The notes below the pieces were generated by a model. The model was not told where the DNA came from. It saw only the letters and a list, made by a program, of their open reading frames with translations, and did no database searches. A stretch of DNA of 62,533 nucleotides, counting the filler, from Basidioascus undulatus (lineage: Eukaryota), in NCBI GenBank assembly GCA_000826855.1. It is 10 parts of 10 records of this genome, joined end to end, with 100 filler letters (N's around TTAATTAATTAA, not from the genome) between each part and the next. Parts side by side here need not be neighbours in the genome. Positions count along the whole stretch, not along the records: positions 37,665 to 43,812 come from JTLS01001798.1; 9 more parts are not named here. One strand, given 5' to 3'. This document shows, piece by piece, positions 1,205 to 56,397 of this stretch (position 1 is the first letter of the stretch; every line of letters begins with the position of its first letter). Made by a program: the position numbers and the translations under genes.

Positions 1205-3627
1205 ATGGTGAAGGACACGGCGCTGTACGACCTCCTGGGCGTGAAGCCGGAGGCCTCGGACGGTACGTCTTCCTTCCTTGCATTTCCCTGCATCACTGTC
1301 TCAACCCGCTCCCATCCCCCCCAGCCGAGATCAAGAAGGCGTACCGGAAGAAGGTGCGCCGCGCTGCGGTTTGCACGGAGGGGAAGCAGCGACCTGACCA
1401 CTCCACCTCCCAATCTCCTCCGCAATTGTTCCGGCCCACCTAGGCAATGGAGAACCATCCCGTCCGTCCCCCTTCCAGTCCGAGGGGAAGAGTCACGCGA
1501 GCTGGGCAACTTATGCGAGGCAGCTGCTGGGCGGCGGTGCGGCGGGTAGGATAAAGTGCGTCTTTCGAACAGGAGGGAGATGCGAACGAGGGAGACGGAG
1601 CGAGGGAGACGGGGGATCTGATGGAAGCGGCGTGCGGTCGGTGGTAGAACCCTGGTGATGCGGAAGCGGGCGAGCGCTTCCAGGCGATCGCGAATGCGTG
1701 GGTGCCCTCCCTCCTCTCCCCTCCCGGCCCCGAGTCTCATACTCGTTCCCTTCCCAGCTACGAGATCCTTGTCCGCCCCTCCTTTCTCCTCTCCCCCTCT
1801 TTCGCCTCTCACACAGCCGCCATCTCACCCCCACCCGCATAGTCCAACTCCACCTCTCGCGAATCCTATGACAACTTCGGCTCCACCTCCACCTCGGGTG
1901 GGATGCCCGGCGGGCCGGACGTCGACATGGACGACATCTTCGCGAGCATGTTCGGGGGCGCGTTCGGGGCGGACCCGTTTGCAGGCCCCGGCGCAGGAGG
2001 AAGAAGGGGGAGAAGCAGCAGGCCGAGGAGGGGCAGGGACGAGATCGTGGATTATGAGGTCACGCTGGAGGATCTGTTTAAGGGGAAGACGGTCAGCTTG
2101 ATGTGAGTCGGTTTGGGGAATGGGCTGATGGCGTGAGCGGGGAGCAAGGGAGAGACGCTGATCGGGAGAGGAGGGATAGGTTGGAGAAGAACATTATTTG
2201 TGGGACTTGCGAGGGGTACGTTTGCGGGAATGGGGCAGGTGGGAGAAGAGAGTGGAAGGGTGGGTGGGATGCTGATGTGGGAGCGGCGGGAACAGGCACG
2301 GCGGAAAGCCGGGGACGAAGCCGAAGACTTGCGTGAGGTGCGATGGGAAGGGGAGCATCATGATGTCCCGACAAGTGCGTATGCGTTTCCAGTTCGCTAG
2401 CCTTCTACACTCTTCTTTTTGCTCGCCCTGCTCCTCCTCGCCCCCGCGACGGCGTCCTCCGTCCCCTTCGCCATTCCCTGCCGCCGCGTTCCCGTTCCGA
2501 CCCCGCATGTCGCGAAGCACCGGAACTGACGCGTCGCATGGCGCTGTGTTCGGGTGGACAGGTAGGACCGGGTCTGATCGGGCAGATGCCGACCGTTTGT
2601 CCGGAGTGCGACGGGGAGGGCGTCAAGATCCGGGAGAAGGACAGGTGTGTACTCGCAATTCTTGCCTTCCTTCCCCGCGGCGCAAGCACTTGCAGTAGGC
2701 TGATTTCGATGTGCGGGACCGGACTTGCAGGTGTAAGAAGTGCAAGGGCGCCAAGGTCGTCAAGACCAAGAAGCGCGTCGAGATCCACATCGAGAAGGGC
2801 ATGCGGGACGGGCAGCGGATCGTCCTGGAGGGGGAGGGTGATCAAGAAGTGCGTTTCCCTCTCCCTGGACCCTTCTTCCTGGCACGTCGCTCATGCTGAG
2901 CGGCTTCCCCCATTCAGCCCGGCGTGACTCCCGGCAACCTAATCTTCGCGCTCCGCCTTCTCCCGCACCCAACCTTCCAAGTCGCGCACCCCGACCTGTC
3001 CACAACCATCACGCTCACGCTCTCCGAAGCGCTCCTCGGCTTCTCGCGCGTCGTGCTCACGCACCTCGACGGCCGGGGCGTGCACGTCTCCGTGCAAGCC
3101 GGCGAGCGCGTCGTCCAGCCGGGGGAGACGATGGTGCTCCGGGGCGAGGGGATGTGGGTCGGCGGGCGCGTGGGCCGCGCGGGAGAGAGGGGCGATCTGT
3201 ATGTTAGGTGCGAGGTCGAGATGCCGAGCACGCATTGGATTAAGGGGGCGGATTGGGAGGTGCGTATTGTTTTGGGAGGAGAGAAGGGGAGGGATGGGAG
3301 CGCTCATAGGAGATGGTGGGGCGGGCGAACAGGCGCTGGAGAAGCTTTTGCCGCCCCGAAGACCGGATCTGCAGCCCCGGCCGGAGGTCGTGGACGAGGC
3401 GGAGTTCGAGCACGGGGATATGGCGAACGTGAGCGGTCTTCTTTACCCCATTCGCGTCCCTCATTCCCTAGCACAGTGACCGCCGCGCTTTGTACACTGA
3501 CTGCTCAGTTTTCTTCCTTCTCTATTTTTCGCAGTTCGGCAAGTCCCATCGCGGGTTCGAGGACACGTACGACGAGTACGAGAGCGAGCAGTTCCCGGGC
3601 GGGACGGGGCAGTGTCCGGCGCAGTAG
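1205..3627 (+). CDS. Type I Hsp40/DnaJ co-chaperone (Ydj1/Xdj1/Mas5 family), multi-exon, complete, with a C-terminal CaaX motif
   Basis: Spliced: [74 protein letters not shown]-rich region follows, then four CxxCxG zinc motifs ([28 protein letters not shown]) and the C-domain [19 protein letters not shown]. It ends GQCPAQ-TAG at 3625-3627. Confidence 0.95.
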
Positions 3628-3957
3628 GCGGGTGCGTGCGTCCTTCGGTGCCTTGACATCCTGCTCTCATGGTGGTTGCTCACATGCAGGCAATGTTGGA
3701 TAGGCTGGGTCATAGAAGAGGACTCTGGCCGGACGGACACTCGCGGCTGTGGGAGGAAGGTTTATTCGCCCGACACTTTCGCTACGCTTCGCACATCATT
3801 GCCGCATTTCTGCCCTGCTCTAACATATCATACCATCCATGCAACACCCTCTCATCTGCCTGTTCTCGACTGCGCCCCACAGCGTCACAAACCCGCTGGG
3901 TCCTCCGACTCGTACCCATCCCCTGCCTCCGCGTCCTCCTCCCGCTGGTATAGCACT

Positions 3958-6187: not shown

Positions 6188-6287
6188 NNNNNNNNNNNNN
6201 NNNNNNNNNNNNNNNNNNNNNNNNNNNNNNNTTAATTAATTAANNNNNNNNNNNNNNNNNNNNNNNNNNNNNNNNNNNNNNNNNNNN
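6188..6287. other. Artificial contig linker
   Basis: 44 N + TTAATTAATTAA (stops in all six frames) + 44 N, identical at nine positions. Confidence 0.99.
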
Positions 6288-8899: not shown

Positions 8900-11052
8900 C
8901 GCTCCATCGTCGCTGGGAGGACGCGTGCAGCGCGTTCGCGTTGTCTGTCGTGCCCGACATCGACGCTTCGCTGCTGTACAGCAAGTATTACCCCGAAGGC
9001 GCACTCTTCAATGAGACGGATTCAAACATCCGAACACTTCGCTCACGACTAACAAGTATGTTTATATACCATTTCGCCAATGCGAATCTCCGTGAGTTGA
9101 CGCCGCCTTGCAAGTCACAAGGGTTCCTGCTGCGTGAAAGTGAACATCACGACCTCCTCTACGTCAAGTTCGCAATCGGAAGTATGGTGGGTGTTTCTGC
9201 ATTCTCAGCGATGTTTTTTGAAGGAATATCTTGCCTTGACTGCTTTACCCTAACTGCAGGCTTGGCTTCCCAATGATTTCAAGGGGCGTTTTCTCGGCGT
9301 TGGCAACGGCGCCAGCAGCGGCGGGTGTAAGTTGTTGAACTCACTCACTTTTTAACTTGATACAGCTTGGGGGGACATGGGGTTCTCTGGTGTCAACTAC
9401 GGCTTTGCTGCGCATGCGACCAACGGCGGCCACAGCTCGAACGGCTCGTCGGCGGCATTTGCGGTCGGGAACCCAGAGAGCCTGATTGACTGGAATTGTC
9501 AATGGTGAGTAGTGGTAGTATCCGCGACTTCAAGTGACCTTAATCACCTTGAGGTCATGCAGCACCTCGGAACGCTCGTGGCGAAAGCAGTTGTCGCTGA
9601 CTACTATCAAGACTCATCATTCAAGAGCTACTACGCTTCCTGCTCCGCTGGTGGACGGCAAGGTGACCTTTTGAGTTGCGCCTCAAGATGTGTTGCATAG
9701 TTGTACTGACTCTCAGGCACGTCCCATAGGATGGATGGAAGCGCAACGCTTCCCACAGACTAGTCAGTTCCATTTATTCTACCATTTTCCGAGTTCCGAA
9801 AGTTCTTATTAACTCCCCCAAACCCCGTGAACAGCGATGCGATCATCGTGGGAGCCCCGGCTGTCGACGACGTTCACCAGTCGGCCGCTGCGTTCTATGG
9901 GAACCAGCAGGTCCTCCCCGTGAACGGCTCGACGTGGCTCTCTAAGGCGACGTGGGCGGCTGTGCACGCTGAGGTGTTGAACCAGTGCGACGAGCTCGAC
10001 GGGGTATGTCTAATTCCCTGTTCTGCGTTCCCTTGTCACGCGCTGCAGAATCTGACATTCTCCTCCCACCCATAATAGCTCAAGGATGACATTCTGAGCA
10101 ACCCAGAGCGCTGCCGGTACGTCTTCCTCTTAGCTTATCTTGAGCCTTTCAAACTCAAGTGAGGTTCTGTGAGCTCCGCCAGGCTCCAGCCGCAGAAGAC
10201 CGCCTGTCGTCCGGGTCAGAACAACACCTCTTCCTGCCTGACGTACGACCAGATTCAGACTCTGCGATACGTCTACGAGTGCATCCGGGTCAACGCTTGC
10301 GAATCGGACAGCTCAATTCCACACCACTGACGCTCTTCTGAACACCAGGCCTTGGGTCGACGAGAACAACACCTACGTGTACCCGGGCTATCTTTTGGGG
10401 GTTCCATCCATCCTTTTCCTTCAACCGCCGGAAAACTAAGCCTTCCAACATGTGTCCGGATGGAACGACCCCTTCATTACTGCCTCCGCTTCGATCGACT
10501 GGCAGAAGGAGGTGGACGCGTGGATGTCGACGCATAGGGACATCACGACCCTACTTCTGGCTCTTCTTGGTGCGGGGGATGAAGCACTGGTGTGGGGGAG
10601 TGAGTCGCGCCTTAGTTTCTCAAGGCAGTTGTCTGAAATTCAACAAAACTTCTGATCCGTACTTTCTTTCTGTGCAGGGTGGTGCCAACGCTTTCGGCCA
10701 GCCCAACTCGTACAAGAACACCCCGCCGTGTCCACCGAGCCCGCGTACAACGCCATTTGGGCACTCATCGACTAGTTAGTGCCACAGCCCATCCTCCTTT
10801 CTCTCCTTTCAAACTTCTAAGGAACTTCCTTCTCGCTGACGCCCCCGAAGAATTCATCGGCACATCCTACAGCGACAACAACGCGTCGCTCGGGATCAGC
10901 TACCAGCGGCCGATCTGCCAGGTACGCCGGCTCCACTCCTCTCCTTTCAGGCGCACGTATTCATAATGTCTCCATTATTGGAGTACCCCAAGAGCGCCAT
11001 CTACCACTCCGGCGACCCGAACCTCTCAACCAGCTTTTCTTGCGAACTTTGA
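8900..11052 (+). pseudogene. Tannase/feruloyl esterase family gene, degenerate (5' boundary approximate)
   Basis: Exons read SEAWLPNDFKGRFLGVGNGASSGG, GFAAHATNGGH, SYYASCSAGGRQG|WMEAQRFPQD, DAIIVGAPA, AEVLNQCDELDG|LKDDILSNPERC, FWLFLVRGMKHWCGG and RPICQ|YPKSAIYHSGDPNLSTSFSCEL*. The usual HG.AD catalytic-Asp segment is not visible, frames shift around 10270-10560, and some splice sites look damaged. Confidence 0.8.
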
Positions 11053-12472: not shown

Positions 12473-12572
12473 NNNNNNNNNNNNNNNNNNNNNNNNNNNN
12501 NNNNNNNNNNNNNNNNTTAATTAATTAANNNNNNNNNNNNNNNNNNNNNNNNNNNNNNNNNNNNNNNNNNNN
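12473..12572. other. Artificial contig linker
   Basis: N-run/TTAATTAATTAA/N-run. Confidence 0.99.
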
Positions 12573-18755: not shown

Positions 18756-18855
18756 NNNNNNNNNNNNNNNNNNNNNNNNNNNNNNNNNNNNNNNNNNNNT
18801 TAATTAATTAANNNNNNNNNNNNNNNNNNNNNNNNNNNNNNNNNNNNNNNNNNNN
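18756..18855. other. Artificial contig linker
   Basis: N-run/TTAATTAATTAA/N-run. Confidence 0.99.
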
Positions 18856-22559: not shown

Positions 22560-23404
22560 TGCAAACTCGGACTAAACGTCCATACGAGTTATCTGCTCTC
22601 CCAACCACGCACACCAGTCTTCAACGTGCTCCAGGAACGGCATTGGCAAGAAACGGTAGCCACTTTCGTGAGGAGCAATCACAGTAACCCATCGTATGGC
22701 GCTCAGCGCTTGTAGCTTGAGCAGCGCTACGCTGTGGTTCTGTCTTGCCAGCTCTGATCGATTCCTTGGGCGTCAGCCCAGTTTCACATTCCCACGAATC
22801 CAGCCACCCTCACCTCTCCTGTGCTCCGCTCCGGCACGATCGACATGGGCAGGATCTCGTAATTCTCGAGCGCGAAACGGGGCGGCTCAAGCGTCACGGG
22901 GTTGGCCGTGATGCATAAGAGGTAGCCAGCGCAGTTGGGACCCTCGGCCCCAGGCAAAGAGCGAGACGAAGCGCGGTAATGAACGTCTTCTCGTGCATGA
23001 CCTGCCATGCGTGCAACGCGAGCATGAGGTCTGCGTCCAGCGCCCGCGAAGGGTCAGAGCGCAATCGCTGCTCGAACGCCACGTTGTAGTCGCAAAGCGC
23101 CCTGTTGATGGGTACTTGCGTTAGTTGCGGGCGCCGTGAGGGTTCCGTCAAGTATGAACTTGTGAAATGGCCAGTGCTGGCGTTGGCACTCGGCCGAACA
23201 GTAAGCGACTGCACGGACAATAGAGCGGTCAACCTGCGAGAGTTGTGGAGGAACGTATCCTGCATTATCCCGGTGTACCATCTTTGCATCTGCCACAAAC
23301 CCGGAGCTTGGGGACATCCGGCGCGGTCGCCTCCTTGCTGCACGGGATGTGTGGCATGAGCCCGTGGTGCGGCTCCTGCCAATGAGCTTGATGTTTGGGG
23401 CCAT
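22560..23404 (-). pseudogene. MYND-type zinc finger protein, frameshifted
   Basis: MAPNIKLIG...CH / CSKEATAPDVPKLRVCGRCKM | VAYCSAECQRQHWPFHKF gives the MYND signature. It needs a frameshift near 23345, and stops lie downstream. Confidence 0.7.
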
Positions 23405-24608
23405 CGAGTTCTATGGGTGAGTGGGCAAAGATAAAGGGATTGGAGTTGAAATATGTTGGACAGAAACGAGAGGGCTTGATGACGGGCGAGCGATACTTGC
23501 GCCAGCGCACGGTGAGAGCTCTGAAGCTGACCGGGATCGAAAGGCAATGACGGAGTCCGATGGCGCAGCATTCAACCCAGTCGCCGCTCGCCTCGTTACC
23601 AGCAGATCATTTATCAATTTATGAGGTATTTCCTCCAACTCTGTTGCACACTTGATACCTCTGCTGCCGTGGACTGAGTAGTGCCGCATAGGACAACCCA
23701 CTCCAGGATTCTTAGTGTTGCGGGGAAGGCGTGGGCAGCCTTATATCAAGTCAAACCTGATTTTCCAGGATTATCCTAGATAAACTTAACCATATCCCAT
23801 CCAACGCATGTGAAAGCTTGGTGATAAGCAGGTCACCGTCACGAAGTTGCAAGTGTTGTTTCGCGTTTTGCCTACGCTGCCAAGAGGAAATCAACATGTA
23901 TCGCTAGCGCAAACATGATGCGGTTGATTAGCCTAGTTGAGATTAGGAGAAGGTAGTCTCTATGACAATTAGTAGGCCTGATTCAAGAGCCGCAGGCGCA
24001 GAGTGAGTGTGCGATTGAGCACTGCGGTGAACACAGGAAGCGGGGTTCCCGTATCAATGTGCCAGATTCGAGCTCTCAGATAATCCCTTTCTGAAGAAGG
24101 GAGATTCAACGTAGACCTTATCGGCAAATAGCCAAGGTGAAGGTAGGCCCGTACCTCCGCGACAACCAACTTCCCATCCCTCCACTCTTGTCTTGGCCAT
24201 GGCAGCCTGCTCTCAGGCTAAGAAAGAGAGAGAACTGCAAAAAGCACAATCATAATAATGCTATAGACTTTAATGGTCCCCAGCATAGCTGTGGGTCTCG
24301 GGTAGCTTCTCCACCAGAGCGTTGTGAGAATGGGATGTGGTAGTTCAGCGCAATTGGAGGTGGTGAGGCCTTTCCAAAACTGAGCATCGATCCTATCCCC
24401 AAGGCATTCGCTTCGCCATTGTGTTTAGGGGAAATGTACAGTGCGGAAGCTGGCGACCTCGGAGGACAGGACCGAGTGAAAGCAACTGCAGCCATACCGC
24501 AGTGCAGTACACCAATGAAACTAACTGGAAGGGGAGCACAGTTTCCGGATACGAAATCAGAGGTTCTCAACTTCGTGGTCCTCCTCCACTCGACGCCGCT
24601 GCGATCGG

Positions 24609-25028: not shown

Positions 25029-25128
25029 NNNNNNNNNNNNNNNNNNNNNNNNNNNNNNNNNNNNNNNNNNNNTTAATTAATTAANNNNNNNNNNNNNNNN
25101 NNNNNNNNNNNNNNNNNNNNNNNNNNNN
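25029..25128. other. Artificial contig linker
   Basis: N-run/TTAATTAATTAA/N-run. Confidence 0.99.
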
Positions 25129-31298: not shown

Positions 31299-31398
31299 NN
31301 NNNNNNNNNNNNNNNNNNNNNNNNNNNNNNNNNNNNNNNNNNTTAATTAATTAANNNNNNNNNNNNNNNNNNNNNNNNNNNNNNNNNNNNNNNNNNNN
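31299..31398. other. Artificial contig linker
   Basis: N-run/TTAATTAATTAA/N-run. Confidence 0.99.
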
Positions 31399-37564: not shown

Positions 37565-37664
37565 NNNNNNNNNNNNNNNNNNNNNNNNNNNNNNNNNNNN
37601 NNNNNNNNTTAATTAATTAANNNNNNNNNNNNNNNNNNNNNNNNNNNNNNNNNNNNNNNNNNNN
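37565..37664. other. Artificial contig linker
   Basis: N-run/TTAATTAATTAA/N-run. Confidence 0.99.
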
Positions 37665-39422
37665 GCTTCATCCGCTCTTCGTCGTCGTCGTCCTCGAGCA
37701 GCCCGGCAGCGGCGACCTTGGCACGGTTCGCCTCCTTCTCCTTGCGCTTGAGACGCCGGTACGTCTTCGACTTAATCTTCGCCATCCGCTTCGCCTTGAG
37801 CTCCGCGGCTTGCATCAGCGCGCGCTGCTGCCGCAGCAGACGATGCCGCTCGCGCATCGCTTCGGAGTCGGACGGCCGCTGATCGGGGAGAACGTCGCCG
37901 GAGGCCGCGGAGGCGGGCTGGGTGAGGTTCGAGGACTTGAGGAGCGATGAGATTTCAGTCTCGAGCTCGGTGCTCGGCTGCCGAAGAGAGCGTTGTTGTC
38001 AGCACCAAGATTGACCGGGACACTCAACTCGGGAAATACGCACCTGGAACTTGCCCACGAGCTCATCGACACCGCCCTTCTTCGTGCCCTCCTCCTTCCC
38101 GCCGTTACCAGGACCCTGGAGCGGGAAGCTGAGGGTCTCTGCCTCTCTAATCCCGCGCATCGCGCCCTCCCAGCCCTTGACCTCGCCGCGGACGAGCTCG
38201 CGTCCAGCCTCGCGGTCAGCACGCGCCTTGTGGAAGGTCGCGACGGGCGCGTCGAGCGCCTTGTCGCCGCGCTTGAGCGGCTTGGTGGAGGATGCGAGGG
38301 AGGAGGAGAGCGTGGCGGGGAGGGGGGCGAGGAGGGAAGACAGGGAGACTTGGCCTGCAGGGAATCGTGGGGGATGAGCGAGGGGAATGGACCGCAGATT
38401 GAAGAGACGCACCGGTCGTAGGGACGCGGAACTCGGAGTTCTCGCCAAGCGCGGTGGTGTCCTTCAGAACGCGGCGCTTCTTCGAGGCGGTAGTAGGTTC
38501 GGGGCCAGCGTCGGTAGAGGCGGAGGGGCGGGAGGGTTTCGGTGTGGGAAGGGAGTCGACGAAGGCTGCGAGGCGGTCCGCATCGCCCTCCTCCTGCTCC
38601 TTCTCCTCTTGCTCCTCTTCCTCTTCCTCATACTCCTCTTCGTCCTCTTCATCCTCCTCGCTACCGTCTCCCTCTTCCTCCTCCCCTTCCTCCTCATCCT
38701 CCGAGTCCTGCGGCATGTCGAGCATCGCGCTCAGGTCCACCATGCCGCCCTCCTCATCGTCCTCCTCGTCCTCATCCTCATCCTCGGATGGGGGCTCGGG
38801 CGAAGCGAGGCCGGGGTCGAAGTGGACGGACTTCCGGCGCGCGAGGGTCGCGGCGTCGGCGAGAGCGGGAGCAGTCTGAGAGGCGGTCTTGGAAGACGAA
38901 GCTTTGAGCTTTGCGGGTTTCTGGGAGTAAAATATGGCAGCAGTGAGCGAGTGCGGAAAGGGGCGACCTGACAGAGAAAGCCGCCACAGGGCCCGAACTC
39001 ACCGTGCTGCTGCTGCCGCTGAACTTCCACTCGCCATATCGCTCGTCGTCGCTCCCGCCCTCCTCCCATGCATCGTCCGAGTCAATCTCCTCGTCATCCT
39101 CCTCGCGCACGACGCCGTCCTTGTCATGATCGATGCCCACAAACCCGGCAGCGTCTTCGTCGCTGTCCTCGCCGCCGCCGCCCAGGCCCGCCTCCTCCTC
39201 GCGGTCGAGCGCGGTTGAGACGTGCCCACGGCGGTCCCTGGCCGCTGGGAGGTCGTATACGTCCAGCGCGGACGATGCGCCGCCCTTCTTGGCTAGGCGT
39301 CGGGCGTAGCCTGACTTGGCGGACGACTGGGTGTAGGGCTTGTTCTTGCGCGAGTTGAGCGACGCTGCGGTCGGACGGCCACTGCGCGTGCCACCGCGGC
39401 TGGGCTTGCGTGTCGGTCCCAT
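37665..39422 (-). CDS. UTP14: U3 snoRNA-associated protein Utp14, 5' part
   Basis: MGPTRKPSR...DVYD...EEDDEEIDSDDAW...SDDERYG, an acidic tract, LDAPVATFHKARADREAG...VKGW, and RALMQAAELKAKRMAKIKSKTYRRLKRKEK, the hallmark Utp14 motif. Confidence 0.93.
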
Positions 39423-39872
39423 TCCGGTAAGAGGAGTAATTATGGAGGATAAGAGGTACGGCGAGCGCACGCTGCCGAAAGGGTCAAGATGGCAGGCAGG
39501 AAGGCAACTTTGTGGGATTCGCTCGCTCAAGAATCCTGGCCGGCGTGGGAATTTCCGGCTGTCAGTCAACCTGTTCGGCCAACACTGATAGCTTGCAAAC
39601 ATCGATTGCATATATATCGCCAGAGCTGAATTTGCACATGTGTGCCAGAGTCTCCCCTTGCAGAAACCTTTGAGTCCTTGGACAGCCTTCAGCTGAGCTT
39701 TGTATAGGGTGCTCAGGCGGACGCTGCGAACGCACGCTTGCGCCGAGCAGGCGACCGTGCTGTTGTGCAAAGTTTTTGATAACTCAAACGCTGCGGTTCA
39801 AAGGTGCATTTTGGAGTGAAATAGGATGGAAAGAACTCCGTGTGGTCTGCAGTATCCTGGCTGATGGCCAGA

Positions 39873-41000
39873 CTAGTTACCGGACTGTCAAGTCGCAGTG
39901 CAGATTGGCTCAGCAAAAGCTTCGCACTACGATGGAACTAGGGAACTATGGATTGCACCTTTTTCTCATCCTTCTTCTTGTCGTTGTCTTTCTTCTTCTC
40001 ATCGTCCTAATTAGAAGGAGTTCCGCGAGGGAGGTCAGCAACAGAATACGATGGATATGATCAAAGCTTTGACTGCACCTTTTTCTTCTCATCCTTCTTG
40101 TCCTCGTCCTGACTAGAGGGGTCAGTGGAAGCTCAGACTTCACTGTGGACGCCAGTAACGCATCTACGGCACCTTCTTCTTCTCATCGTCCTAATGAGAA
40201 TGAGTTCAGTACCGGATCCGCGATCGATACGAGTAACTGTTGATTGCACCTTCTTCTTGTCCTTCTCCTCGCGCTTCCGCTTGTCATCCTTCTTCTTGTC
40301 CTTGTCATAAAATGGAGCAAGTCAGCGACAGCTCTGACTTCACTATGGATGCCAGTAGAGCATTGAAGGCACCTTCTCGTCCTTCTTCTCGTCATCCTGA
40401 TGAGGATGGGGTCAGCACGAGATGCACGATGGATATGTGTAAATGTTGAATGCACCTTCTTCTTGTCCTCGTCCTGATGGTGGGCTTCAGCCGCAGTCAA
40501 ACTTCACTGTGGATGAATGTAGGATCAAAACACCTTCTTCTTTTTGTCATCTTTCTTATCCTTGCGCTTTGTCTTCTTCTTGTTCTCGCCCTAATCGGCG
40601 GGGGTCAGCGACAGCTCAGACTTCTCTATGAATGAAGTGAAGCGTTGAAGCACCTTCTTTTTGCCATCATCCTTCTTTTTGTCGTCCTCCTATTCGCTCG
40701 AAATGGATCAGCAACAGCCCGCACTCTGTGTTCAATCCAGCATTGACTGCACCTTCTTCTTGTCGTCGTCCTTCTTTTCCTCCTGTAACAATCGGAAAGT
40801 TGGGCGTCAGCATCCCTGCTCCCCGCAAGTAAGTCGCCGCAACGTGCCCTCTTGAGATTGTCATTCCAACGGTGCTTGCTCAGCTCACCCGCCTCCCGAC
40901 GGCTGAGCATGTTGGAGCCAGTCGCGGCCTCGCGCGGCATGGCAATCGCCATGGCGGAGGCGGAGAAGGCGACGATGGCGAGGATGGAGCCGGTGCGCAT
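39873..41000 (-). CDS. Secreted Lys/Asp/Glu-rich repeat precursor (~158 aa) with 11 exons, nine of them repeated phase-0 micro-exons
   Basis: Exons: 41000-40848, 40782-40753, 40689-40654, 40590-40534, 40473-40456, 40396-40373, 40300-40250, 40190-40173, 40108-40079, 40006-39959, 39884-39873. Introns are 59-74 nt and end in AG. Donors are AAG|GTG, except intron 1 (inferred GC donor). Signal-like MRTGSILAIVAFSASAMA, with a propeptide ending LKR. Confidence 0.85.
39930..40810. repeat. Diverged tandem array of ~80-120 bp exon+intron units
   Basis: Recurring plus-strand (G)CACCTT(C/T)TT...GTCCT(A/G)A...(G)TCAG, with two intron types (CAGACTTCACTGTGGA-like and CGATGGATATG-like). Confidence 0.9.
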
Positions 41001-43299
41001 ATTTGAGAAGGGCGGAGAGGGTTTTTGTGTTCTTTTGAAGAGCTTGGGAAACAGCTGGTTGATGTGGCATTCCAACCCGCTTGAAGTTGGCCTTTTTAAC
41101 CGGGAGGCAGCATCAATGCGCAGCCGGGTGACCATAGTCTGTGGCACCAGACTGTTCCGCTGCCTTGTTGGTTCTTGAAGACATTTGCATATGTGCCCGC
41201 ACGAAACACGATGCAGTGGTGTGCACTATATCGCAAACCAGATCTGCCGTCGCTCATCGTTCGCTTAATGAGCCTGGACGTCCTGATTATACCTAAAGCA
41301 AGTCAGGCACAGCCGACGCAGACCCGAAATATATATTTGGTGGGAGACAATGGTGCAATTATTATGATGACTGTGGCTATGGTAGGCGGATGGTTCACGG
41401 TTTGTTTTGCCCGCGGACGCCGCTTGTTGCGGCCTCATTCTACCACCTCGCAGGCGGTACGTGTGAATTTTCCACTTTGATCTGGATATATTCTTTACCA
41501 ATGATCGTTAAAGCAGATAGAATCCCACATGGAGTGACCATCCTAGCTCAGTCTCCGCTCAAGGGCGCAGGAAAAGCAGCCCTTTCTGGTGGGGACGTGG
41601 CAAAAGTGCTTTTATGAGCCCCAGGCATTTTCCCACTTTTGACTGGCTAGTCCCATTTATACAAGACAAAACTCATCACCGCCACGGAGTCCTGCGCTTG
41701 ATCTGATCAGAGGCACGTCTGGCTGCAGGTTTTGGCCGCATCACACAGCTTGACTAGCAGAAATGCTGTATGTGAAGCATGCAAGAAGAGACTGATGTAT
41801 GATACAACTCTGGTGGGAAGCCCATTCATAGTCATAAACAAAGACTTCAACCAGCAGCTCCCGGCCTGTGGGCCTGAACGAGCAAGTAGTACACCATTAT
41901 CTTGGCGTCCGCAAGAGCTCCGACATGTTATTTGGGCCTTAGTGCAACTGTTTATCCACAAACCCTGAACGAAATCTGTGTACCTCTGAAAAATTGAGAC
42001 CAGGAGTCAACCCAGCAGGCGCCGAGCTGTGTCTTTGCACTTGCAGACATGCATGCGAGCAACATATACTGGATACTTGGCGGTACAGAAGCAAGCTCGA
42101 CGTAGACTAGAGATGATGTAATAAAGGATAATGAGAGGTGGGGATATGTAGTATACCCGAAAGAGAAACCACTTGTCTGCAACAGCAGGAGAATACACAA
42201 CCGAGCACGGCTCTGCCTTCTGCGGGTATAAGGTATCTCCCCCTAACATGTAGAAGATTATTCGACGGGAAGCATTGATGAAGTTGTCGATGATAGGTCT
42301 CAAGTACAGAAGAAAGGTGAGAAAGACCGAGCATGTGCTACCTATCTTCCCAACTCCGCAGCATCTCAACTGTCTGTCCCATTTCCTCATCGATGTGAGA
42401 TTTCTTCAAGTGAGCTTTTGCCTTGAACTTTTAATTTTTTTCTATGGGAATGGTCCTGAACTGACATAGTGCTGCCTGAAATGACTGTGCTGTGTTGAGG
42501 ACGGCCATGCCTTTGAAAGTGGCAGGGTGTCTACCAGGGCGTATTTACCAATACCACGGCAGCGATTGAACGGAGGCACGCTGATTATTGTCTTCTTCAT
42601 GAGTAAGGAACAGCTGCGACCTTGAAAGCCATCAGACTGTCCGACACTAACTAGATACACCCTTTGCATTCTCCCTTGCCAGATACAAATCTTATCTCAT
42701 ATTACTTTGTACAAGTTTGAAAAAGAGCCTGAACAACTGGCTCAGATTGATGCGCCTGATACTGGCCAGAGTGGGCAAGATGCGGCCCGCAACGCCATTT
42801 GGCAAGTCCACTTAGACCAACGGTGTCATGGAGCGATATTAGCAGCTTCAATACTGACTTTGACGATGAAGAAAGCGGATTTCATGACGAGTGAGCGAAC
42901 AGATTGCGAGAAAGCGAGGTTGCACGGGCAAAACAAACCGTGAACGTCCCGCCAACCACACTGCCGCGCATCGCAAGGTTTTCTCACTTACAAGCAGCGT
43001 TGCGGGAGGCGTTTGGTGCGAGTGCTTTCGTTGTCCGACATAGGCGCTGCTGGATGCTGGAGTCCTTCGCTTAACCCTGATTGATTACAATTGAGAGGCA
43101 ATATATGAAGCCCATGCCGCTCAACCCACTCCACCTCGACATGCGATGTGCAGCGGACGAAAAGCGAGGTTCGAATCTCGCGAACGAGGATGCCATATGA
43201 GCGTCAGCCGTTCAGTAAAATCCTAAGTCAGTGCGAAAGGATCAAAGCATCATCACGCTGCAGGATCAATCCGTCTAGATGCATGCGGTCCCGTCCATC

Positions 43300-43760
43300 T
43301 CACAGCAAGCCCTTGAGCACTGCAACCTCGGCGTTGATAACAGAGCTGGTCCTGCAACCGCAAAGTCCACTCAGGTCAGCATACGCCAGACGAGAACACG
43401 AAAAGGATGAAACGCACGCAGCGCCGATCTGGACGTTGTTGGCGAGGACGACAAACTTGATGTCAAAGACGTCACACTCGCGCACGCGGCCGACATTGCA
43501 GCCGGCACCGTTCTGGAAGTCGCGGTCGAGGCGGGGCTGGGGGCGGTCGGGCTCGTCATGGACGTAGACGACCTGTTCAGGCGCGGACGGCGCGCCGAGC
43601 TCCTGCGCCTCGCAGCGGTACGCGCGGAGGGCCTCGACGACCTGCTCGGGGGAGGGCGGGGGCCGCTTGGCGAAGCGGACGGACGCGCAGGCCATGTGCC
43701 CGTCGAGGACGGGCACGCGGTTGCACGCCGCGGAGATCTTCATCGGCGTCGACTCGTACG
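43300..43760 (-). CDS. HOM2: Aspartate-semialdehyde dehydrogenase, 3' part
   Basis: MKISAACNRVPVLDGHMACASVRF...DEPDRPQPRLDRD...VGRVREC..FDIKFVVLANNVQIGAA|TSSVINAEVAVLKGLL*. Confidence 0.96.
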
Positions 43761-43812
43761 CTAACCGCTTTTTGCGCTACCTTAGGCAATGGCGGGAACG
43801 GGGCTGTCGCTG

Positions 43813-43912
43813 NNNNNNNNNNNNNNNNNNNNNNNNNNNNNNNNNNNNNNNNNNNNTTAATTAATTAANNNNNNNNNNNNNNNNNNNNNNNNNNNNNNNN
43901 NNNNNNNNNNNN
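43813..43912. other. Artificial contig linker
   Basis: N-run/TTAATTAATTAA/N-run. Confidence 0.99.
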
Positions 43913-50057: not shown

Positions 50058-50157
50058 NNNNNNNNNNNNNNNNNNNNNNNNNNNNNNNNNNNNNNNNNNN
50101 NTTAATTAATTAANNNNNNNNNNNNNNNNNNNNNNNNNNNNNNNNNNNNNNNNNNNN
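50058..50157. other. Artificial contig linker
   Basis: N-run/TTAATTAATTAA/N-run. Confidence 0.99.
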
Positions 50158-56297: not shown

Positions 56298-56397
56298 NNN
56301 NNNNNNNNNNNNNNNNNNNNNNNNNNNNNNNNNNNNNNNNNTTAATTAATTAANNNNNNNNNNNNNNNNNNNNNNNNNNNNNNNNNNNNNNNNNNNN
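56298..56397. other. Artificial contig linker
   Basis: N-run/TTAATTAATTAA/N-run. Confidence 0.99.

Follow-up and report, generated by a model that had tools for sequence, protein, structure and literature searches.

A locus on the minus strand of Basidioascus undulatus DNA, at 41000-39873 of the 62.5-kb stretch analysed here as a whole (the window), presents the anatomy of a gene divided into 11 exons by 10 short introns and encoding a protein composed mostly of lysine, aspartate and glutamate (K/D/E). This K/D/E locus is, on balance, probably a real lineage-restricted (orphan) gene for a secreted, disordered and lysine-rich polyampholyte, module-duplicated and spliced via weak donors. What was observed directly is how the locus is laid out in sequence, which codon bias and repeats it has, and that relatives are lacking; its splicing, secretion, processing and function are inferred.

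Gene model

Joining the exons by their coordinates (Table 1) with a script gave a coding sequence (CDS) of 477 nt with one terminal stop and a product of 158 amino acids (aa), in which 99 of the 107 residues after exon 1 were K, R, D or E, as an earlier sequence-only reading had counted them by hand. The further claim of that reading, that no single open reading frame (ORF) contains the 158-aa product, was also confirmed. Exon 1, whose ATG has an A at –3, is followed by nine internal tracts that are purine-rich and, in 9 of 9 cases, multiples of 3 in length.

The splice sites had been described as consistent, and this held insofar as all ten spacers start with GT or GC, end with AG and contain a branch motif of the CT(G/A)A type, whose distance from the 3′ end is 13-28 nt (three TGCTGAC, two CGCTGAC, and one each of CACTGAC, TGCTGAT, GGCTGAA, TACTGAA and TGCTGAG). 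Nine spacers start as AAG/GTG. The description did not hold for intron 1, which starts as AGG/GCACGT and needs a GC donor, nor for introns 2, 4 and 8, which carry an extra AG between the branch motif and the acceptor: 7 nt upstream of the acceptor in intron 2, adjacent to the branch in intron 4, and as a competing TAG 4 nt upstream of the acceptor in intron 8. Acceptors were CAG or TAG in nine of the ten introns and AAG in intron 6, which also has an alternative in-frame AG 6 nt downstream of the model acceptor.

Reading frame and codon usage

The G+C content at third codon positions (GC3) was 0.86 in exon 1 and 0.82 in exons 2-10, compared with 0.51 in the introns of the locus and 0.46 in the 400 nt of upstream flank. 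Verified coding stretches of the window, used as references, gave 0.77-0.91 in five of six cases (one from the aspartate-semialdehyde dehydrogenase gene ASD, three from Utp14 and one from a DnaJ gene), the exception, at 0.66, being the last, long ORF of DnaJ, which may extend beyond the coding end. Moreover, codon choice in the tracts (AAG over AAA, 46:7; GAG over GAA, 13:1; GAC over GAT, 19:10) agrees in direction with that of the verified genes, the K/D/E frame being the one with the codon bias of this genome. Of the 104 codons, 98 have A at position 2 and 101 a purine at position 1. Pyrimidines number 39, of which 35 fall at position 3 (binomial P ~3e-13, for copies that are not independent), and no T occurs at positions 1-2 over 312 nt.

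Past the end of exon 1, a continued reading in its frame finds G or C at only 11 of 21 third positions of intron 1, and at 34 of 73 when the whole read-through ORF is counted; this drop puts the end of exon 1 where the model sets it. Retention of any of the ten introns introduces either an in-frame stop (seven introns, among them intron 2) or a frameshift (three, among them intron 1), indicating that the nine tracts share one frame only if the spacers are removed. For example, an ORF with intron 10 unremoved stops 7 codons inside it, one of these being a Val supplied by the donor GTG. Since all internal exons are symmetric, skipping any of them keeps the frame. The +2 frame has stops in 7 of the 9 exons. 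A plus-strand reading of the locus was rejected as well, as its pyrimidine tracts give frames rich in L, F and S and, by eye, every GT...AG arrangement forces 'exons' of 4 nt.

Repeat structure

Ten of the 17 tracts of at least six RAN triplets in the window lie inside the 830 nt of the locus, and five of the other seven are placed in the acidic parts of the neighbouring Utp14. The motif formed by exon end and donor, AAGGTGCNNTCAA, was observed 6 times against 1.03 expected, always at the locus, and a 23-nt intron motif 3 times against 0 expected. The introns fall into type A (introns 3, 4, 6 and 8) and type B (introns 5, 7 and 9), which alternate across introns 4-9 with a spacing of ~200 nt, a pattern indicating growth of the array through tandem duplication of units made of an exon plus an intron. 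In pairwise comparison the introns share only 48-76% identity, which indicates that the duplications are old. What was kept despite this divergence is GT and G+3 in all nine repeated introns, C+4 in eight of them, and the exon end AAG in all nine. The alternation of introns 4-9 gives a two-exon unit of higher order of ~200 nt.

The type-A introns also carry a short inverted repeat, GTCAG...CTGAC, that would pair the branch-site motif into a hairpin (40319-40340, 40121-40143 and 40604-40626, minus strand), which may be a coincidence or may affect the use of the branch site.

Weak donors and alternative explanations

The reference for splicing in this genome was a set of nine introns of the window, verified either through homology or because the ORF continues across conserved peptides. 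Five belong to the Ydj1-like DnaJ gene, three to Utp14 and one to ASD. These introns measure 58-187 nt and have the same branch motifs as the locus, and their donors are GTGCGT (five), GTGAGT (two), GTACGT and GTGTGT, so that 9 of 9 conform to GTNNGT. Two broader approaches were too noisy: an ORF-joining intron finder returned 113 candidates with no donor consensus, and the hand-verified introns were used instead, while hexamers upstream of branch motifs conformed to GTNNGT in 44 cases against 38.6 expected, which gave no usable donor profile.

Several findings weigh against a functional gene. None of the nine repeated introns conforms to GTNNGT, all lacking G+5/T+6, versus 9 of 9 verified introns (Fisher P = 4e-5); judged by sequence, their donors would be weak if used at all, and the efficiency of splicing is doubtful. 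The AAG acceptor of intron 6 is poorer than the others, introns 2, 4 and 8 have their extra AGs between branch and acceptor, and intron 1, having no GT donor in phase 0, requires GCACGT; a phase-0 G(T/C)NNGT would arise there by chance in ~1 of 4 cases by rough estimate. All nine exons are open in the +1 frame too, the lengths in multiples of 3 and the richness in AAG and GAC could also stem from trinucleotide slippage, and the nine copies are duplicates rather than independent trials. In addition, exon 1 has no relatives in the collections searched and thus gains no support from conservation, and its putative signal peptide was assigned by heuristic.

These observations can be gathered into a possible, though not likely, explanation in which the locus is a decaying former gene, or a non-genic tandem repeat of ~100-200 nt with slippage cores, which still resembles exons and introns although its K/D/E message is no longer, or never was, spliced. 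The donor discrepancy would follow from decay, as A at +5 in five of the nine donors fits an ancestral GTGCGT losing its CpG, and the extra AGs and the lack of relatives found in searches agree with it; slippage can make (AAG)n and (GAC)n runs, and gene conversion spreading from similar purine tracts could conserve the intron ends. However, no stop, frameshift, or T at codon positions 1-2 is found in 312 nt despite the 48-76% identity of the introns, and every copy retains GT, branch motif and AG. GC3 is that of real genes whereas the surrounding DNA is at ~0.5, and the non-repetitive exon 1 shows the same bias together with an ATG that has A at –3.

If the locus is the functional gene favoured here, the repeated introns would have to be removed through the off-consensus junction AAG/GTGCNN. 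The exon end AAG is present at 9 of 9 repeated introns and GTGC at 8 of 9, compared with G at –1 in only 5 of 9 verified introns. Compensation between the exonic and intronic halves of donors is known in other eukaryotes, where purine-rich (GAR) exonic enhancers also support weak splice sites. Splicing would probably draw on the perfect AAG with which the exons end and on an enhancer role of the purine-rich exons.

The claim that the signal exon is joined to the K/D/E exons has an in-frame and internally coherent model behind it, but one that rests on a GC-AG intron which the earlier reading had left out. GC donors make up ~1% of fungal introns. GCACGT is a one-base variant of the verified donor GTACGT, and by reasoning no other donor nearby is in phase 0 with the frame of exon 2: the GT donors at 40888 and 40843 are in phase 1 and would lead to a frame with stops from exon 3 on. 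It is highly unlikely that the K/D/E mini-exons are spliced but unlinked to the signal exon, the true 5′ exon lying elsewhere or the exon-1 ORF being a separate short ORF, in which case the product would more probably be nuclear or nucleolar. The GC-AG intron as sole link, and a neighbour identified by Pfam as Utp14, speak for such a separation, and K/D/E-rich tails are typical of nucleolar proteins. Against it, the K/D/E frame of exons 2-10 has no ATG and meets a TGA 9 codons upstream of exon 2, and no other ATG ORF with a phase-0 donor was noticed in 41000-43300, where the ORFs look non-coding and have no Pfam match. Moreover, intron 1 has a size (65 nt), branch motif (TGCTGAC) and acceptor typical of the genome, and the drop in GC3 falls exactly at the proposed end of exon 1.

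It is likewise highly unlikely that introns 2-10 are spliced and intron 1 retained, giving in the +1 frame a very basic secreted protein rich in Arg, Thr and Met. The unspliced ORF does run from exon 1 directly into that frame, which is stop-free in the nine exons, with all junction codons being AGG, and intron 1 has no GT donor. However, 55 of 103 codons would be AGA or AGG, compared with 24 CGN and 8 AGR in one reference ORF; the variable base would fall at codon position 2, with R/T/M/K swaps, and third positions would have ~46% G+C versus 0.77-0.91 in real genes. The K/D/E array as a 5′ extension of Utp14 was rejected, as the K/D/E frame has no ATG and Utp14 has its own M-start ORF, which begins like other members of its family, including the yeast N-terminus.

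Predicted product

The 107 residues after exon 1 (K53 D29 E14 R3 G3 N3 T1 S1) include no C, W, F or Y and have a net charge of +13, a mass of ~13 kDa, an isoelectric point of ~9.5 and a grand average of hydropathy (GRAVY) of –3.6. In this tail, 21 acidic runs of 1-3 residues alternate with 21 basic runs, mostly of 2-4 residues (12 of length 3), and charges are better mixed than by chance, with a kappa-like index of 0.043 versus 0.117 in 1000 shuffles. For a well-mixed polyampholyte, polymer theory expects an expanded, hydrated coil.

The signal peptide proposed for exon 1 fits by layout of residues 1-22, as judged by heuristic only. R2 is followed by a hydrophobic stretch free of charged residues (3-22), in which the Kyte-Doolittle mean over 11 residues reaches 2.3; three A-x-A motifs overlap at 14-20, and P22 comes next. 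Residues 21-51 are hydrophilic, with RR at 34-35. The KR sites reported for exons 1, 4 and 7, from which three [acidic2-3 Lys2-4]n peptides might be released, were located at residues 50-51, 81-82, 113-114 and 115-116; the three KR-bounded pieces (31, 32 and 42 aa) share a composition and no motif. With signal cleavage assumed after A20, in silico cuts after R35, R51, R82, R114 and R116 gave pieces of 15, 16, 31, 32, 2 and 42 aa.

According to the favoured reading, exon 1 would encode a cleavable signal peptide and a pro-region of ~30 residues ending in KR. The product would enter the endoplasmic reticulum, lose its signal peptide and probably its pro-region through a Kex2-type cut after KR51, and be secreted as a highly hydrated, disordered and net-basic chain. 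Outside the cell this chain may act by electrostatics, most plausibly by binding anionic polymers of the wall or matrix. A role as Kex2-released peptides, or a host-directed role in which the Lys runs serve as sequences resembling a nuclear localization signal (NLS), is less likely. The functions suggested by the earlier reading, as a protectant, ion binder, matrix component or effector, would likewise be candidates.

Search for relatives

The lack of a recognisable family, reported earlier, was borne out by protein and metagenome searches with exon 1. A word-indexed search of longer proteins yielded 32 candidates and none at E≤10, and a scan of JGI metagenomes yielded 596 pattern matches, with 0 confirmed. 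The sole hit of a HMMER scan of 1.84 billion representatives was a 660-aa repeat protein, matched in 6 stretches at 27% identity and judged spurious. In the ESM Atlas, the best scores for exon 1 were ≤0.84 (bacterial lipoproteins), with an MF_alpha_N cluster at 0.76, below the lead level of 0.9; they are at most a hint of a signal-bearing precursor. Metagenome DNA with the pattern of exon end, donor and branch was found at 3 loci, none with further K/D/E tracts and two of unrelated composition, which were attributed to chance. In the open-access literature, neither a fungal K/D/E secreted protein nor a fungal micro-exon gene was found described.

Genomic context

The window consists of ten pieces of ~6.1-6.2 kb with linkers N44-TTAATTAATTAA-N44 between them, and arguments from neighbourhood are therefore valid only inside 37665-43812, the piece with the K/D/E locus. 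The Utp14 gene, of the U3 small nucleolar ribonucleoprotein, lies downstream on the same strand, beginning ~450 nt past the K/D/E stop with an ATG near 39421, and is truncated by the end of the piece. Upstream of the locus lies the 3′ end of ASD, with one 66-nt intron (43417-43352), its N-terminal two thirds being cut away by the other piece end. The best named matches of this fragment are basidiomycetes, Microbotryomycetes first, at 60-66% identity (Pseudohyphozyma 64%, Rhodosporidiobolus 66%); the best matches of any kind reach only 73-74%, indicating that the organism has no close relative in protein collections.

The 2.3 kb at 41000-43300 (~50% G+C) are unusually empty given the gene-dense sequence: Pfam gives no match and neither strand offers a convincing ORF. 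The stretch may harbour promoter sequence or a further gene that went unrecognised. A TATA-like TTAAAAA, found by a script pattern 93-99 nt upstream of the exon-1 ATG, may serve as a core promoter element. An in-frame ATG at 41135 (minus), upstream of TTAAAAA, would prepend 45 residues to the signal-like segment, and an out-of-frame ATG at 41070 (minus), downstream of it, opens a 61-codon ORF overlapping exon 1; whether either is part of the mRNA depends on the transcription start. No Rfam match was obtained over 39400-43300 at E≤1.

Pfam scans covered 19, 38 and 150 ORF translations, the last set being the first 150 of 413 ORFs of 75 aa or more. They identified DnaJ_C, Utp14, Semialdhyde_dhC and zf-MYND, with weak matches to Tannase and Nop14, and no other family, which was not enough to supply further reference introns. 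The zf-MYND match (E 1.7e-7; 23057-23410, minus) and the weak match to Tannase/feruloyl esterase (E 2e-5, under the curated cut-off; 9764-10072, plus) lie in other pieces, and most long ORFs of the window are without a Pfam family. The five introns of the DnaJ gene, of 69-187 nt, all have a GTNNGT donor.

Table 1. Coordinates of the K/D/E gene model and of other features of the window
Feature	Coordinates	Strand	Length	Description
Exon 1	41000-40848	minus		ATG + 50 codons; signal-peptide-like N-terminus, then ~30-aa hydrophilic pro-region
Intron 1	40783..40847	minus	65 nt	GC donor GCACGT; branch TGCTGAC 24 nt before acceptor ACAG
Exon 2	40753..40782	minus	30 nt	10 K/D/E codons
Intron 2	40690..40752	minus	63 nt	GTGCAG; branch TGCTGAT; acceptor ATAG
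Exon 3	40654..40689	minus	36 nt	
Intron 3	40591..40653	minus	63 nt	GTGCTT; branch CGCTGAC; acceptor TTAG; type A
Exon 4	40534..40590	minus	57 nt	KR site
Intron 4	40474..40533	minus	60 nt	GTGTTT; branch GGCTGAA; acceptor TCAG; type A
Exon 5	40456..40473	minus	18 nt	
Intron 5	40397..40455	minus	59 nt	GTGCAT; branch TGCTGAC; acceptor TCAG; type B; repeat family D4
Exon 6	40373..40396	minus	24 nt	
Intron 6	40301..40372	minus	72 nt	GTGCCT; branch CGCTGAC; acceptor CAAG; type A
Exon 7	40250..40300	minus	51 nt	KRKR
Intron 7	40191..40249	minus	59 nt	GTGCAA; branch TACTGAA; acceptor TTAG; type B, 76% identical to intron 5
Exon 8	40173..40190	minus	18 nt	
Intron 8	40109..40172	minus	64 nt	GTGCCG; branch CACTGAC; acceptor TCAG; type A
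Exon 9	40079..40108	minus	30 nt	
Intron 9	40007..40078	minus	72 nt	GTGCAG; branch TGCTGAC; acceptor TTAG; type B
Exon 10	39959..40006	minus	48 nt	
Intron 10	39885..39958	minus	74 nt	GTGCAA; branch TGCTGAG; acceptor ACAG
Exon 11	39873..39884	minus	12 nt	3 codons + TAG stop
TATA-like TTAAAAA	41093..41099	minus		Candidate core promoter element
Utp14 (U3 snoRNP) gene, 5′ part	37666-39421	minus		Pfam E 1e-21 and 9e-15
Utp14 introns (n=3)	39002-38921, 38412-38355, 38043-37978	minus		
ASD (HOM2), 3′ end	43303-43758	minus		C-terminal ~130 residues
Ydj1-like DnaJ gene	1843-3700	plus		Zinc-finger CxxCxGxG motifs, DnaJ_C; splice-site reference
Linkers	6188-6287, 12473-12572, 18756-18855, 25029-25128, 31299-31398			
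Linkers	37565-37664, 43813-43912, 50058-50157, 56298-56397			

Significance

If the K/D/E gene is expressed, it is one that standard gene finders miss, since its product appears in no ORF, its exons measure 18-57 nt, and it has one GC donor with nine off-consensus ones; fungal secretomes may therefore conceal a class of low-complexity products. It would also be a clean case of a gene built from tandem exon-plus-intron modules, each of which leaves the frame intact, a kind of architecture associated until now with parasite micro-exon genes. Moreover, a chain that is 93% charged, net-basic and well mixed would be an unusual extracellular polymer, for which matrix hydration, polyanion binding and host targeting are candidate roles. 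If the locus is instead a relic, it serves as a warning of how gene-like a decaying repeat can appear.

Comparison with known systems

The label of Kex2-processed repeat protein (KEP), given to the layout by the sequence-only reading, was assessed against the KEPs described in fungi (PMC6339444, PMC7329392, PMC9769878). The criteria of PMC6339444 are a predicted signal peptide without transmembrane segment (SignalP/TMHMM), cleavage at all KR/RR sites into four or more fragments of 2 aa or longer, and at least 3 near-identical motifs interspaced by Kex2 sites and making up at least 15% of the protein. The K/D/E product shares with KEPs the layout of a small secreted precursor, in which a signal-like N-terminus and a pro-region with terminal KR precede a repetitive body, and it gives 6 fragments of at least 2 aa at KR/RR. 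However, inspection of the charge runs revealed that the units of acidic residues plus Lys are not flanked by KR/RR, so that the label fails on the defining repeat feature, although the fragment filter is passed. 'Repeats' appear only with KK as cut site, and the cores are then 1-3 acidic residues; nor has the product any sequence relationship to a catalogued protein.

Proteins with a similarly extreme share of K/D/E, likewise predicted to be disordered and devoid of Cys and aromatic residues, include those with KKE/D tails among nucleolar proteins (Nop56, Nop58 and dyskerin), hydrophilins and late embryogenesis abundant (LEA) proteins, and 'Hero' proteins. All of these are intracellular and have no signal peptide; their charged tract is either a tail attached to a folded domain or a protectant in the cytosol. 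Hydrophilins are defined by Gly above 6% and high hydrophilicity; the K/D/E product shows the latter (GRAVY –2.5 to –3.6), but its Gly content is too low (3 of 107 residues in the tail, 6 of 158 overall).

Another comparison is with the SP7-like effectors, presented in PMC11333574 as a family of Glomeromycotina only, with a signal peptide and between 6 and 11 hydrophilic repeats that are imperfect and close with a conserved island. The likeness lies only in a signal peptide followed by hydrophilic repeats, the Lys runs here being NLS-like as well, whereas SP7-like repeats are longer and end in islands. The per-exon translations revealed no such island beyond the Lys runs, and protein searches with exon 1 gave no homology match, no direct alignment to SP7 sequences having been made.

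The micro-exon genes (MEGs) of Schistosoma (bioRxiv 10.1101/2023.06.21.545858) encode secreted products from short symmetric exons of 3-81 bp, form a Schistosomatidae-specific family and have introns of 0.2-5 kb. The likeness lies in several points: all nine internal exons of the K/D/E gene measure 18-57 nt, are multiples of 3 and can be skipped with the frame kept, amounting to 312 of the 477 CDS nt, and both systems are lineage-specific and duplication-expanded. On the other side, the introns of the locus are of 59-74 nt, its host is a basidiomycete, there is no homology, and MEGs do not encode K/D/E polyampholytes. MEG transcripts are known to be spliced in alternative ways. By analogy, and as a rather unlikely extension of the favoured reading, the locus could be a fungal counterpart, a gene created de novo by duplication, in which deliberately weak donors, and mini-exons that are themselves purine-rich splicing enhancers, would allow combinatorial inclusion and skipping of exons and yield secreted polyampholytes graded in length and net charge, which might tune binding to polyanions of the host or the matrix. 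The schistosome micro-exon gene is the closest architectural analogue of the K/D/E gene, and not a relative.

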